Shown piece by piece: positions 29,795 through 53,775 of a DNA stretch of 64,000 nucleotides. Below the pieces are notes generated by a model, which had not been told where the DNA came from, ran no database searches, and was given only the letters and a program-made list of their open reading frames with translations. The position numbers and the translations under genes were made by a program. The DNA comes from a virus: IMG/VR virus record IMGVR_UViG_3300022916_000011, positions 1-64,000 of that record; one strand, given 5' to 3'. Position 1 is the first letter of the stretch, and every line of letters starts with the position of its first letter.

Positions 29795-30667
29795 ATGAAG
29801 AAATTCGTGTTACTCGGTGCGGCAGGATTTGTTGCACCTCGCCATATGCAGGCGATAAAAGACGTTGGTGGTGAGTTAGTTGCTATAATGGACCCCTCTG
29901 ATAGTGTGGGTATTGTGGATTCATATTTTTCTAATGCTGCGTACTTTAAAACATTTGAAAGGTTTGATCGTCATTGCTCCATGAGAGGGGATATAGATTA
30001 CGTTTCTATTGCAAGTCCGAACCATTTACATGACGCACATTGTCGTTTTGCTTTACGAATTGGAGCGGACGCCATTTGTGAAAAACCTTTGGTATTAAGA
30101 GAGAAAAACCTTGATCAGTTGCTTAAATTAGAGAAACAAACAGGTAAAAGGGTTTGGAATATCTTGCAATTACGGTTAAGTGATGTTTATAAGAGGATTA
30201 TTTCTCATATTAATGAAATAGACGATGGACATTTACTTGATATTTCATTGGATTACTTTGCTCCAAGGGGTCGTTGGTACGACTTTAGTTGGAAGATGTC
30301 TGAGGAACAGTCAGGTGGCCTTGAATGTAATATAGGGATTCATTTACTGGATCTTCTTTGTGAATTTTTTGGTCATTGGGATATGGTTTCAGCTTATGAC
30401 AAAGATATAATGGGAAGGAACATATACTTTTCTGTAGAATTTGCACATGCTACTGTTTATGTGGAACTATCTCTTGACAGATCAGAGAAAAGGGAACTCA
30501 CTATAGATGGAGTTTCTTTTGACCTTACCCCTAATATGAAAAATTTGCACACAAAGAGTTATGAACAGATTTTAGCAGGGAAAGGTTTTGGTATTGAAGA
30601 AGCAAGGCAGGCTGTATCTTTATGCGATGAATTGCGTGATATATCTTTTGAAAGGAGGTATAAATGA
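29795..30667 (+). CDS. wbpB: Gfo/Idh/MocA oxidoreductase, UDP-GlcNAcA 3-dehydrogenase-like (WbpB/WlbA)
   Basis: GAAGFVAPRH, DPSDSVGIVDSYF, SPNHLHDAH, CEKPLV, RGRWY..SWK....SGG..NIGIH. Confidence 0.85.
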   Translation: MKKFVLLGAAGFVAPRHMQAIKDVGGELVAIMDPSDSVGIVDSYFSNAAYFKTFERFDRHCSMRGDIDYVSIASPNHLHDAHCRFALRIGADAICEKPLVLREKNLDQLLKLEKQTGKRVWNILQLRLSDVYKRIISHINEIDDGHLLDISLDYFAPRGRWYDFSWKMSEEQSGGLECNIGIHLLDLLCEFFGHWDMVSAYDKDIMGRNIYFSVEFAHATVYVELSLDRSEKRELTIDGVSFDLTPNMKNLHTKSYEQILAGKGFGIEEARQAVSLCDELRDISFERRYK

Positions 30668-31161
30668 GAGATGATATGAGAGAAACAGGTGACAATGTTC
30701 AAATTCATCCAACTGCAAGAGTGGATTACTGTTATATGGGGAAGAATATTAAAATTTGGCATAATTCTCATATTTGTGACAGGGCAGAAATTGGGGATAA
30801 TTGTATGATCGGTCAGAATGTCTACATTGGACCAGATGTTAAAATTGGAAAAGATTGTAGAATCCAGAATAACGCTTATATACCAGAAGGTGTCATTATT
30901 GGGGATTTTGTTTTTATTGGACCTGGAGTAACATTCACTAATGTTAAGTATCCTGATGCATTGACAGATCAAAGTGGTAATTTTTTGACTACTAAGGTTA
31001 TGGCTGGTGTGGTAATTGGTGCTAATGCGACAATCTTGCCAGGACTAGAGATTGGTAGTGAGAGTTTTGTGGGGGCAGGTTCTGTTGTTACAAAAGATGT
31101 TGAAAATGGAGAAACTGTGGTTGGTAATCCAGCAAGAAATTTTGATAATGGGAGAAAGTAA
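30664..31161 (+). CDS. wbpD: Hexapeptide-repeat sugar N-acetyltransferase (WbpD/WlbB-like)
   Basis: IHPTA, IWHNSHI, IGQNV, GPGVTFTNVKYP, GAGSVVTKDV, VGNPAR. Confidence 0.85.
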   Translation: MRDDMRETGDNVQIHPTARVDYCYMGKNIKIWHNSHICDRAEIGDNCMIGQNVYIGPDVKIGKDCRIQNNAYIPEGVIIGDFVFIGPGVTFTNVKYPDALTDQSGNFLTTKVMAGVVIGANATILPGLEIGSESFVGAGSVVTKDVENGETVVGNPARNFDNGRK

Positions 31162-31614
31162 ATGAAAGACAATGTTATACAAATTGAAAATGATATAAAG
31201 TTAGCTGTTGTGTGTATGCCTGGTTTAGAGTCATTTCTTCCAGATATTGTGCATAGTTTAGAAGAAAACTATTCTGTACAGACATGCTATAGTAAGGATA
31301 TGAATGAAATTAAAGATGTTGTGGAATGGTGCGATATTGTATGGATCGAATGGGCCAATGAACTTGCTATCCATATTACCAATGAATTACCAATTGAAGA
31401 CAAACAGGTGATTATAAGGTTGCATTCGTATGAAGCTTTATCCGGGTATTGTACGCAAATAAAATGGGAAAAGGTAGATGGTCTTATACTAGTTGCACAA
31501 CATATAAAGGATATATTAAAAAACCAAAATATTATTTTACCGGCAGATTTGAGAACGTACATTATTCCTAATGGTGTAGATTGTGATAAATTCAGGAGGG
31601 TAGTTAATGGCTAG
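31162..31614 (+). CDS. GT-B (GT4-like) glycosyltransferase, N-terminal domain only
   Basis: WIEWAN, RLHSYE, ends IIPNGVD (inter-domain linker). Confidence 0.75.
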   Translation: MKDNVIQIENDIKLAVVCMPGLESFLPDIVHSLEENYSVQTCYSKDMNEIKDVVEWCDIVWIEWANELAIHITNELPIEDKQVIIRLHSYEALSGYCTQIKWEKVDGLILVAQHIKDILKNQNIILPADLRTYIIPNGVDCDKFRRVVNG

Positions 31615-32005
31615 AGGAAACTTTGTGAACTGGGATTCTTTAAAAGAAACTTATAACAGGATGCATAATACGCAGTATAAAACAAGTAAAGAATGGGTCA
31701 TAGAGCTATACAATAAGCATAAAAAATATGTCAGTCCTGTATCAGAAGAATTAGGGGTTAGTTTTAATACGGTTAGTAAATATTTGGATGGTCTGGGTGT
31801 TCTGGAAAGAAAACCTAAAGGTGGAAATAACTATATAAATAGACCTATGGGTAAAAAAGAGCAGTTATTTTTAGGAATAACGGAAAAAACTATGTTGGAG
31901 TTAACTAGAAAGCAAGTAATGGAAAGATGCGGAATATCGCATACTACGTTTAATAAATTGGCAAAAAAGTACGGAAGAACTTATTTGAAAGGAAGAAGCG
32001 CATGA
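31607..32005 (+). CDS. Putative HTH DNA-binding protein inserted between the glycosyltransferase halves
   Basis: VSEELGVSFNTVSKYL and VMERCGISHTTFNKL HTH-like segments. Confidence 0.6.
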   Translation: MARGNFVNWDSLKETYNRMHNTQYKTSKEWVIELYNKHKKYVSPVSEELGVSFNTVSKYLDGLGVLERKPKGGNNYINRPMGKKEQLFLGITEKTMLELTRKQVMERCGISHTTFNKLAKKYGRTYLKGRSA

Positions 32006-52028: not shown

Positions 52029-52082
52029 TCAAAGGGTTTTTCTTTGATTTTTTGTAAATCTTGAAATAGAGAGGTATTAAAA

Positions 52083-52529
52083 ATGGCAAACAATACTTTT
52101 ACGGTTGATGGAAGAACTAGGTTGGTGGATGACCTTCTGGTTCTTAAAGCCAAAGGTACAGTAGCAACTTCTATGGTAGGTGAAAGTCCCGTTGGTACGG
52201 ACAAAACCTTTGATACTGGTGGTGGACGTACTGCTGGTAATATTGTACTGCTTGTTTATGCAGTGCCTAATATTCTCGCTTCTACCAAAATGACCTTTAG
52301 GCTGCAGGGTGGAAAGAATACTTCTTTCTCCACTCTTACTGATCTTCATATTATTGAGTTGGGTGATTCTACTCAGATTACCAGTGCTGTTGATTTGGGC
52401 GTTGGTAAGTACATTATTCCTTTCAACAATGAGTTTGATGGAACGGTTTATCGCTATCTGCGACATTACCTGACCATTGGTGGTACTTGTGGAACTGGCG
52501 TAAAGTATGAGTATTACCTCACAAAATAA
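52083..52529 (+). CDS. Capsid decoration/cement protein
   Basis: Beta-rich, follows MCP, YRYLR motif. Confidence 0.6.
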   Translation: MANNTFTVDGRTRLVDDLLVLKAKGTVATSMVGESPVGTDKTFDTGGGRTAGNIVLLVYAVPNILASTKMTFRLQGGKNTSFSTLTDLHIIELGDSTQITSAVDLGVGKYIIPFNNEFDGTVYRYLRHYLTIGGTCGTGVKYEYYLTK

Positions 52530-52539
52530 GGAGTAGATA

Positions 52540-53775
52540 ATGAATGATACGGGGCAAGTATCTATTTCTATCTGCATGATGGTAAGGGACGAAGAAGAGA
52601 ACCTTCAACGTTCCTTACCATCTTTAAAAAATTTAGCAGATGAACTAATTGTTATTGACACAGGATCAAAAGATAAGTCTATTGAGATTGCTAAGTCCTT
52701 TGGTGCTAAAGTTTATGAACATCCTTGGGAAGATGATTTTTCGAAACACAGGAATCAATCTGTTTCATATGCTACCTCAGACTGGATTTTCATTTTTGAT
52801 GCTGATGAAGAACTAATTGTACCCAATGAATCTTCCATTAGGGAATTGAAGCAGTGGTTACTTAAATTAGAAGAACCTTGTTGTTCTGCTGCTATTGTTT
52901 TACATGATATTCAACAAGATAGACAGGTAATGCGTTTTAATTCTGTTCGTCTTTTTAGAAGGGGTCATGTTGAATATTTAGGAACAGTTCATAATGCCCC
53001 TAAAGTTATAAATGGGGATTCAAAAGCGCCAATTTGTAATCTAATTGAATTGAATCATTACGGGTACGATTTAACACCAGAGAAAGCATTGATTAAAAGA
53101 AAACGTACTGAAAGCCTTCTCTTGAAAAGAATTGAACAAGATCCAGATGATGTGGCTGCTTATTTTTATTTGGTTCAAGCATACACAGCATATAGCGAGT
53201 ATAACACAGCTATTAAGTATATTTTTAAGTATGAGGAAGTTGTTAAGAAAAATGGAGTTGAATTTAATGGTTCAATTTTTTGTACTGCCGTTTCAGTTTT
53301 CAGAAAAGTGAGTGATAAAGAAAATTGTCAAAGGTGGTTGTTAAAAGGGTTAAAGAAATTTCCACGTGATTTAGATTTACTGATGAATTTGACCGAATTT
53401 GGTGTTTGGCAAAAGAAGTTGAATTTGGTCATTCAGGGTGGAAAAGGATTTATGGAAGTGTATGAAGAATATTCTAATAATCCTTTAGCTAGTGGAAATA
53501 GATTTACTTACGCAAATGTACCAGAAGCAGCAGCTTATTGTTTATTCCACTTATCATTAGGTTTGCTTCAAGAGAGTAGTGAGTATCTAAATAGATTAGG
53601 TGTAGTTTTAAATGATGCCGATCCTAAGTATGCTGCTGGAATGAAGGGTGATGTCGCAACTGTTCTAGATAAATTTGGTTGGCACAGAGATGGTTGGAGT
53701 AGTTCTGCAAAGCCCAATATGATTGGTAGAGAATCTAAAAGGAAAATAGTGAATTTGAGTAAAAGCTTAAATTAA
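52540..53775 (+). CDS. GT2 glycosyltransferase with TPR-like C-terminus
   Basis: SICMMVRDEE, DTGSKD, WEDDFSKHRN, FDADE, HYGY, then helical repeats. Confidence 0.9.
   Translation: MNDTGQVSISICMMVRDEEENLQRSLPSLKNLADELIVIDTGSKDKSIEIAKSFGAKVYEHPWEDDFSKHRNQSVSYATSDWIFIFDADEELIVPNESSIRELKQWLLKLEEPCCSAAIVLHDIQQDRQVMRFNSVRLFRRGHVEYLGTVHNAPKVINGDSKAPICNLIELNHYGYDLTPEKALIKRKRTESLLLKRIEQDPDDVAAYFYLVQAYTAYSEYNTAIKYIFKYEEVVKKNGVEFNGSIFCTAVSVFRKVSDKENCQRWLLKGLKKFPRDLDLLMNLTEFGVWQKKLNLVIQGGKGFMEVYEEYSNNPLASGNRFTYANVPEAAAYCLFHLSLGLLQESSEYLNRLGVVLNDADPKYAAGMKGDVATVLDKFGWHRDGWSSSAKPNMIGRESKRKIVNLSKSLN

Follow-up and report, generated by a model that had tools for sequence, protein, structure and literature searches.

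A GmaR/SunS-family glycosyltransferase gene in the head operon and a sugar gene cluster of an uncultured long-tailed phage: a candidate virion glycosylation system

The window studied here is a 64,000-nucleotide stretch of viral DNA that comprises bases 1–64000 of the 77,965-bp linear IMG/VR virus record IMGVR_UViG_3300022916_000011. The record is an uncultured long-tailed phage; its completeness according to CheckV is 48%. The window contains a gene in the head operon (52540–53775, plus strand) that encodes a predicted protein glycosyltransferase (GT) with a GT2 catalytic domain and a helical TPR-like domain, hence termed GT2-TPR, and a cluster of sugar genes of about 15 kb (29765–44839, plus strand). 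A preliminary description of this window had suggested that GT2-TPR primes Ser/Thr-rich virion proteins and that the products of the cluster extend the first sugar into a glycan coat. Here, we describe the two loci, their conservation in related viral contigs, and the explanations that could account for them.

Head operon and the GT2-TPR enzyme

The plus-strand structural genes follow the order scaffold, major capsid protein (MCP), a 148-amino-acid (aa) protein, GT2-TPR, a 77-aa open reading frame (ORF), head-tail adaptor Ad1, head closure, tail terminator, tail tube, chaperones, and tape measure. The MCP (51096–52028, plus strand) has a GP7/BPP-1-like HK97 fold (phrog_212, 271.8 bits; Pfam GP7). 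Its nearest cultured counterparts, with identities of 51–54%, belong to phiCbK-like Caulobacter phages (54% identity to their capsid proteins), Brevundimonas jumbo siphoviruses, and Microcystis phage Mwe-JY26. All these cultured capsid relatives have a cement gene, and none has a GT gene after it.

The 148-aa protein (52083–52529, plus strand) is predicted to be a jellyroll capsid cement (decoration) protein. Its AlphaFold2 model (pLDDT 82) aligns with the BPP-1 cement protein (3j4u_H; VIA-align Z 13.0, rmsd 2.1 over 115 aa) and with the Carin1 cement protein (8cjz_B; Z 12.0), the next unrelated rows having a Z of 8.5; the Foldseek E-value of the model is 3.5e-5. Caulobacter phage CcrSC has a homologue with the annotation of minor capsid protein. 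The GT2-TPR gene starts 10 nucleotides past the end of the cement gene. Further downstream are the adaptor Ad1 (54036–54542, plus strand; phrog_477, Pfam DnaT_2) and the tail tube gene (56519–57700, plus strand; Pfam Phage_tube_2, 159 bits). The cement model and the Ad1 match thus bear out the earlier placement of GT2-TPR between a decoration gene and the head-tail adaptor.

The 411-aa GT2-TPR protein has a Glycos_transf_2 domain of the GT-A type (Pfam, 66 bits), followed by a helical region with a weak match to TPR_17; TPR families are also seen in its homologues. The DxD motif, D87-A88-D89, is invariant in 29 homologues, and both this DAD and a downstream histidine align with GmaR and SunS. 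A search of PDB with the profile of the 29 homologues retrieved GmaR (1.7e-45), SunS (7.6e-37), and ThuS (7msk; 2.9e-30), with the next family at 1e-9. In the AlphaFold2 model (pLDDT 89) the GT-A domain is followed by about 200 residues of helical repeats, residues 180–378 being all helical with pLDDT above 85. The top Foldseek matches of this model are SunS and ThuS, which align over both domains (E-value about 1e-17, 376–386 columns), the next being TarS (3e-8). Judged by its sequence and predicted fold, GT2-TPR is a soluble protein- or peptide-type glycosyltransferase of the GmaR/SunS/ThuS family, with a predicted activity.

Cellular relatives of GT2-TPR were collected as the best 80 loci, with one genome per prokaryote species. 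A flagellin-family gene lies at most 8 kb away in 45 of these 80 loci, and at most 3 kb away for 35 of the 77 GT ORFs that were long enough for the tree. All five neighbour genes that were checked, including the one at the Clostridioides difficile locus, contain both the Flagellin_N and Flagellin_C domains of Pfam. Together with the sequence and fold matches, these neighbourhoods agree with the preliminary assignment of GT2-TPR to protein-type GTs. In a FastTree phylogeny of 163 sequences, the 79 phage copies group in a single clade with a support of 100, which lies among the flagellin-adjacent cellular enzymes. Since the tree is rooted at the midpoint only, the direction of transfer is a matter of interpretation; we infer that the phage GT2-TPR proteins were derived from bacterial flagellin glycosyltransferases. 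No flagellin gene and no gene for a Cys-rich peptide adjoins GT2-TPR, the neighbours being the cement gene, the 77-aa ORF, and the adaptor. A glycocin-type system was rejected because no genes for a precursor peptide, a transporter, or thiol-disulfide proteins are found nearby. There was no actinophage among the tblastn matches of GT2-TPR.

Conservation of the GT2-TPR locus and its association with sugar genes

Relatives of GT2-TPR are present in at least 328 IMG/VR contigs, of which 79 viral loci were fetched for the analysis of synteny. In about 55 of the 79 loci the scaffold and MCP genes are followed first by the cement gene and then by GT2-TPR, each present once or twice, and finally by the adaptor gene. 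In three loci GT2-TPR directly follows the MCP gene, and in eight it is found after the tail terminator; in L063, L065, L067, and L082 a Phage_tube_2 or homologous tube gene comes directly after it. The complete genome G006 and the genome G010, both with a tail-side GT2-TPR, have no detectable cement or BPP-1-like capsid gene, which suggests that the position of GT2-TPR follows the available surface protein. In G006, about 4 kb between GT2-TPR and the tube gene (L045:11337–14995) encode products with hydrophobic signal-like N-termini, including a 705-aa protein. In G008, GT2-TPR is followed within the structural module by extra GT2 genes and a radical SAM/SPASM gene (L126:2753–3526), and a single 556-aa ORF (L126:8539–10209) combines GT2 with the GIY-YIG and NUMOD3 homing-endonuclease domains.

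The 77-aa ORF (53788–54021, plus strand) has a conserved N-terminal part of about 35 aa and a Pro/Lys/Glu-rich tail and belongs to no Pfam family. Matches to it were obtained in at least 30 loci, and in more than 50 related loci, with or without GT2-TPR, it is conserved upstream of the adaptor gene and downstream of the cement gene or of GT2-TPR. We considered it as a GT-specific partner or substrate and rejected this role, since 15 of the 21 relatives without GT2-TPR also carry it. Its presence in these GT-negative relatives points to an ancestral order of MCP, cement, 77-aa ORF, and adaptor, into which GT2-TPR was inserted after the cement gene.

To compare phages with and without GT2-TPR, the locus search was seeded with a capsid alignment, the cement alignment being too variable as a seed. 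The resulting capsid-anchored sample includes 40 loci with GT2-TPR, 21 loci that have the MCP, cement, and adaptor genes without GT2-TPR, and 19 loci that were too short. Gene co-occurrence was tabulated for 27 long records, 17 with GT2-TPR and 10 with the same capsid and cement genes and no GT2-TPR. Among the 17 positive records, NDP-sugar (nucleoside diphosphate sugar) epimerases or dehydratases (PF01370) are present in 13, GFO/IDH/MocA oxidoreductases (PF01408) in 12, and hexapeptide acetyltransferases in 15; each of the three is absent from all 10 negative records. At least one of them is present in 17/17 records with GT2-TPR versus 0/10 without it, so that the association of the enzyme with sugar genes, an analysis already proposed in the preliminary description, was recovered in this sample. 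In four loci (L066, L068, L069, and L077) the GFO/IDH/MocA and acetyltransferase genes come directly after GT2-TPR and precede the adaptor gene, within the head module.

The GT-negative phages form a more distant capsid group (59–64% identity), and their genomes are smaller: the GT-positive group includes complete genomes of 83–92 kb (one of 188 kb), and the GT-negative group has one complete genome of 54 kb and two 87%-complete genomes of 40 kb. The contrast is therefore partly a lineage effect. The GT-positive genomes G006, G010, and G011 have unrelated capsids, which lends it some independence.

Content of the sugar cluster and flanking genes

All genes of the cluster are on the plus strand. 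They encode soluble enzymes that act on sugar nucleotides, three methyltransferases, a sulfotransferase, and an SGNH-like protein, and at least four GT domains are found among their products. The sugar-nucleotide enzymes, GTs, methyltransferases, and sulfotransferase named in the preliminary description were recovered as classes by Pfam and NCBIfam searches; its finer assignments fared unevenly, as described below.

The first gene (29765–30667) encodes an NAD-dependent sugar oxidoreductase of the GFO/IDH/MocA family (PF01408, 58.7 bits), and the second (30664–31161) a left-handed beta-helix sugar N-acetyltransferase of the NeuD/PglB/VioB hexapeptide family (Pfam Hexapep, 105 bits), which scores 100.8 bits with TIGR03570, under the cut-off of that model. 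The label WbpB/WbpD-like given to such enzymes holds at the family level and goes no further. No DegT aminotransferase was found in the record; in the complete relatives G003 and G005 a DegT aminotransferase gene adjoins that of the acetyltransferase.

The next genes appear to encode a split glycosyltransferase. A 150-aa protein (31162–31614) without any Pfam match is the probable N-terminal Rossmann half of a GT4-type (GT-B) enzyme; its Atlas feature leads are to Glyco_transf_4 N-domains, and in G001, G006, G010, G013, and G019 its gene directly adjoins a homologue of the 727-aa GT encoded downstream. That protein (32002–34185) has three modules by Pfam, namely a Glycos_transf_1 C-half (GT-B), Glycos_transf_2 (GT-A), and Glyco_trans_1_2 (GT-B). 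Its sequence matches in PDB include heparosan synthase and the TagF-like polymerase Cps3D, and a full-length homologue with 40% identity is present in G010. The 150-aa ORF is probably the missing N-terminal half of the first GT module of the 727-aa protein. The two halves are separated by a 132-aa HTH_23 gene (31607–32005; Pfam, 24.8 bits), which overlaps both neighbours by 4–8 bp exactly at the junction. In G010 and G019 the same junction is uninterrupted, and G002 has copies of the HTH gene at other sites; the gene resembles a small mobile one.

The 727-aa GT is followed by a class I S-adenosylmethionine (SAM) methyltransferase (34794–35441; Pfam Methyltransf_23, 25, 12, and 11) and by a candidate SGNH-like esterase or acyltransferase of a mainly viral family (35569–36267). 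The SGNH label had been given to the latter before; an Atlas structure lead to an SGNH cluster (TM-score 0.76) favours it, and no Pfam or NCBIfam match backs it. Two paralogues of this protein are encoded in G010. Then comes a sulfotransferase of the 3'-phosphoadenosine 5'-phosphosulfate (PAPS) type (36270–37004), which has a marginal Pfam match (Sulfotransfer_2, 23.2 bits at a cut-off of 22), the motifs PKTGGT and RNPYSW, and homologues in L065 and L067. It is followed by a GT-B glycosyltransferase with a second Glyco_trans_1_2 domain (36962–38071; PF13524, 41.9 bits) and by a probable SAM methyltransferase (38259–38957) recognised by the motif I sequence LHLGCG only, with no Pfam match. Searches of PDB with the sequences of the 150-aa, SGNH-like, and last-named proteins gave nothing usable.

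A transketolase-like enzyme is encoded as two separate subunits, a thiamine diphosphate-binding N half (38912–39709; Pfam Transketolase_N, 92.6 bits; NF004559, 203 bits, under the cut-off) and a pyrimidine-binding C half (40806–41663; Pfam Transket_pyr, 66.5 bits). The 1.1-kb gap between them is filled by small ORFs (40133–40417 and 40549–40809), one with a zinc-ribbon-like motif. The split transketolase may serve in branch formation or in pentose-phosphate metabolism; a branched glycan made with its help is speculative.

Two short-chain dehydrogenases/reductases (SDRs) follow. The first (41636–42637; Pfam Epimerase, 104.9 bits) is an NDP-sugar enzyme of the 4,6-dehydratase, epimerase, or decarboxylase type, for which every NCBIfam equivalog scores under its cut-off; the earlier assignment as UXS-like is supported no better than a 4,6-dehydratase-like one. 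The second (43024–43971; Pfam Epimerase, 167 bits) is a GDP-fucose-synthase-like 3,5-epimerase/4-reductase. Its description as Fcl-like agrees with a score of 225 bits with NF047922 and stops short of a specific function, the equivalog cut-off being 500 bits. The last gene of the cluster (43958–44839) encodes a SAM methyltransferase with weak Pfam methyltransferase matches and an EFGCGTG motif. It adjoins the portal gene and is kept beside it in L026 and L053.

None of the cluster proteins has a predicted transmembrane segment. The families PF02397, PF00953, and PF01943, which represent Bac_transf priming enzymes, WecA-type enzymes, and the Wzx flippase, respectively, were not found in the five genomes G000, G003, G005, G006, and G032, which comprise the record of the window and four complete relatives. 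Nor was a tyrosine integrase (PF00589) found in the record of the window and four complete relatives, serine recombinases not having been searched for. With no transmembrane segment, priming enzyme, or flippase, the layout is as in cytoplasmic flagellin-type glycosylation.

The left arm of the window (1–21.5 kb, minus strand) carries early genes, mostly of no assigned function. From 22.7 kb the plus strand encodes a class II ribonucleotide reductase, a NUMOD3 endonuclease, and a NUDIX protein, followed by the sugar cluster, which is thus bounded by the reductase side on the left and by the portal gene on the right. The portal, an intein-bearing large terminase, and the small terminase are encoded on the minus strand (44877–49926). 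The intein lies in the large terminase gene (46575–49121; Intein_splicing, 64 bits), where a 319-aa ORF (47531–48490) is found on the same strand in another frame. The tape measure ORF of about 3,686 aa starts at 58931, runs through the end of the window at 64000, and continues to about 69,991 of the record (L085:17–9991); its length implies an exceptionally long siphovirus tail. A megablast search with the whole region found no near-identical DNA in INPHARED. Promoter and terminator scans showed no enrichment over shuffled sequence, and operons were not defined by them.

Possible functions and comparison with known systems

A predicted phage-encoded virion glycosylation system derived from flagellin glycosylation is in our opinion the most likely reading of these loci, and we hold it with middling confidence. 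It builds on four observations: the family to which the enzyme belongs, the order of the genes, their co-occurrence, and the lack of lipid-carrier machinery. Which protein accepts the sugar, which donor is used, and how the priming enzyme and the cluster are connected, we infer as follows. GT2-TPR would be made late, in one transcript with the capsid and cement proteins, and would act in the cytoplasm. Its helical domain could bind a virion surface protein, and, prior to assembly or in the course of it, the GT-A domain could attach the first sugar at a Ser or Thr residue, or possibly at a Cys. The jellyroll cement protein is the most likely acceptor in this phage, and the tail tube protein is a second candidate, likeliest in other phages. 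The cluster enzymes would turn host nucleotide sugars into unusual donors, such as an oxidised N-acetylated N-acetylhexosamine derivative and a 6-deoxyhexose; several GT modules, together with methyl, sulfate, and acyl transfer, would then extend and decorate the glycan, so that a single glycan would be primed by GT2-TPR and lengthened by the products of the 15-kb cluster. The likely purpose would be to mask or diversify the particle surface.

Several observations weigh against this model. Neither a distinct Ser/Thr-rich tract nor a C-terminal extension like those of mycobacteriophages is present in the cement, capsid, or tube proteins; the MCP ends with DGAVAA and the tube protein with VSKFDA. 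The Ser/Thr-rich virion acceptors postulated in the preliminary description were therefore not recovered. When the Ser+Thr fractions of the cement, capsid, and tube proteins were compared between GT-positive and GT-negative phages, only the cement protein differed, and slightly so (0.186 versus 0.158). Unrelated inserted genes are also found in structural operons, the GT2-TPR tree is rooted only at its midpoint, and cultured phages in INPHARED contain no full-length homologue. The co-occurrence with sugar genes is confounded by lineage and genome size, the lineages not being independent. Finally, the cluster is co-transcribed with the block of the ribonucleotide reductase and NUDIX genes, and packaging genes on the opposite strand divide it from the head operon.

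This last arrangement is what would be expected if the two loci had separate functions, with GT2-TPR placing a simple host sugar on a virion protein and the cluster being an auxiliary metabolic island for the remodelling of the envelope glycans or nucleotide-sugar pools of the host, with carriers and export machinery that the host provides. A distance of about 8 kb, which includes the packaging genes, separates the cluster from GT2-TPR, and the cluster belongs to another transcription unit; the peripheral GTs of O-antigen pathways are soluble too, and the split transketolase, which is far from the GT genes in G008, could be a pentose-phosphate gene. On the other hand, the co-occurrence is perfect across the 27 records, the two sugar genes adjoin GT2-TPR in the head module of four loci, and a priming transferase, flippase, or tyrosine integrase was found neither in the record of the window nor in the four complete genomes, which makes separate functions unlikely. 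GT2-TPR could also be directed at the host, where it would glycosylate flagellin, pilin, or an S-layer subunit with sugar supplied by the cluster, and thereby mask the receptor against superinfection or against loss of progeny on debris. The phiCbK-like Caulobacter phages, to which the nearest cultured relatives of the MCP belong, are flagellum-dependent; this, the flagellin-adjacent position of the nearest cellular relatives, and the very long tail expected from a tape measure of this size would all suit a host protein as the target. Yet the gene is fixed beside cement or tube genes, that is, at two different structural positions, and its position tracks the presence of the cement gene; a late head transcript would be late for receptor masking, and the phiCbK-like phages themselves lack GT2-TPR. 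We find a host target quite improbable.

Modification of the phage DNA with sugars as a protection against restriction is another role that has to be considered for the cluster, given that DNA-glycosylating GTs are well known in phages (Pyle et al. 2024, as cited in PMC12619734) and that the record is only 48% complete. Neither the record nor the complete genomes G003 and G006 contain the thymidylate synthase/hydroxymethylase family PF00303, of which G009 has a member and G005 a weak match. Among the left-arm genes that were scanned, a generic radical SAM protein was found and no hallmark of DNA modification, and the family to which GT2-TPR belongs acts on proteins and peptides. Modification of DNA is thus very unlikely. 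Both this alternative and conversion of the host surface had been raised in the preliminary description; the lack of a hydroxymethylase, an integrase, transmembrane segments, and carrier enzymes weakens DNA modification and lysogenic conversion and leaves each some small probability. A misassembly that joined host DNA to a phage contig, also raised there, might be suspected from the many bacterial homologues of the sugar genes. It has a negligible chance of being correct: the GC content of the window (0.34–0.42) and the GC skew are continuous, the latter being smooth and tracking gene orientation, phage genes are found on both sides of the cluster, insertions of the homing-endonuclease type occur within the region, and parts of the cluster are found again in many independent viral contigs, some of which are complete and have terminal repeats.

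We tentatively extend the virion glycosylation model to a broader and more doubtful scenario, in which a large group of uncultured tailed phages took a flagellin GT into its virion operon once and then built variable carrier-independent glycan pathways with tailoring of nucleotide sugars, GTs of several modules, methylation, and sulfation, producing a strain-variable complex coat on cement or tube proteins as a phage counterpart of flagellin and O-antigen diversity. If virion glycosylation is the function of these genes, it would also be widespread in environmental phages, given the number of contigs with GT2-TPR, and would depend on an enzyme family of flagellin glycosylation and on phage-supplied sugar pathways that vary like O-antigen loci. 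It would have a bearing on how stable the particles are, on interactions in adsorption and anti-adsorption, and on grazing or recognition by immune systems, and would represent a compact soluble protein glycosylation system.

Among the characterised enzymes, GmaR is the flagellin O-GlcNAc transferase of Listeria monocytogenes. Both GmaR (PDB 22ao), the best sequence match of GT2-TPR, and the GT2-TPR protein encoded next to fliC in C. difficile likewise have a GT-A domain with an aligned DxD motif followed by helical repeats, are soluble and cytoplasmic, and are encoded beside the gene of a surface-filament subunit. The phage enzymes differ from them in forming a clade of their own and in their length of about 400 aa, compared with 540–700 aa for many cellular relatives; their genes adjoin cement or tube genes and no flagellin gene, and the anti-repressor role of GmaR has no counterpart in the phage. 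The best fold matches are the glycocin S-glycosyltransferases SunS and ThuS (SPbeta yolJ; PDB 7msn, 7msp, and 7msk). SunS is likewise phage-borne, being encoded by prophage SPbeta, whereas the identity of the phage GT2-TPR to these enzymes is only 17–27%, and the genes for a Cys-rich precursor, a transporter, and thiol-disulfide proteins that would mark a glycocin locus are lacking beside it. The literature searched contains no report of enzymes of the GmaR/SunS type in the structural modules of phages.

The 148-aa protein shares its fold and post-capsid gene position with the cement proteins of BPP-1 and Carin1, at 21–23% identity, and the insertion of a GT gene after it distinguishes the locus from those of cultured phages with the same capsid and cement pair, such as CcrSC and Mwe-JY26. 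In contrast to lysogenic O-antigen conversion of the Gtr/Oac type, the cluster encodes no membrane-embedded proteins and is accompanied by no PF00589 integrase; in contrast to Wzx/Wzy or other carrier-dependent polysaccharide loci, it has neither a priming phosphoglycosyl transferase nor a flippase, as established for the five genomes above.

Capsid glycosylation is virus-encoded in chloroviruses and mimiviruses, and A064R of PBCV-1 is a multidomain protein with GT and methyltransferase functions. Likened by description, these viruses also possess their own sugar-nucleotide enzymes, soluble multidomain GTs, and methyltransferases, which act in the cytoplasm independently of host membranes; they differ in being giant viruses of eukaryotes with unrelated capsids. 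An Atlas structure lead, to be taken as a lead only, connects the SGNH-like protein with a giant-virus GT fusion.

Giant viruses and mycobacteriophages are the two groups for which virion glycosylation is described in the literature searched, and as far as this goes, phage-encoded virion glycosylation has been shown experimentally in mycobacteriophages only, where it affects antibody recognition. According to PMC12619734 and PMC11256854, both citing Freeman et al. 2023, phage-encoded GTs of mycobacteriophages modify the capsid and tail tube subunits. To the extent of these sources, the capsid and the tube are the same two structural neighbourhoods in which GT2-TPR is found. The host phylum is different, however, the C-terminal acceptor extension has no counterpart here, and the system described in this work is known from genes alone. 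Compared with the mycobacteriophages as portrayed in these sources, the phage described here additionally carries genes for nucleotide-sugar tailoring, sulfation, and methylation.

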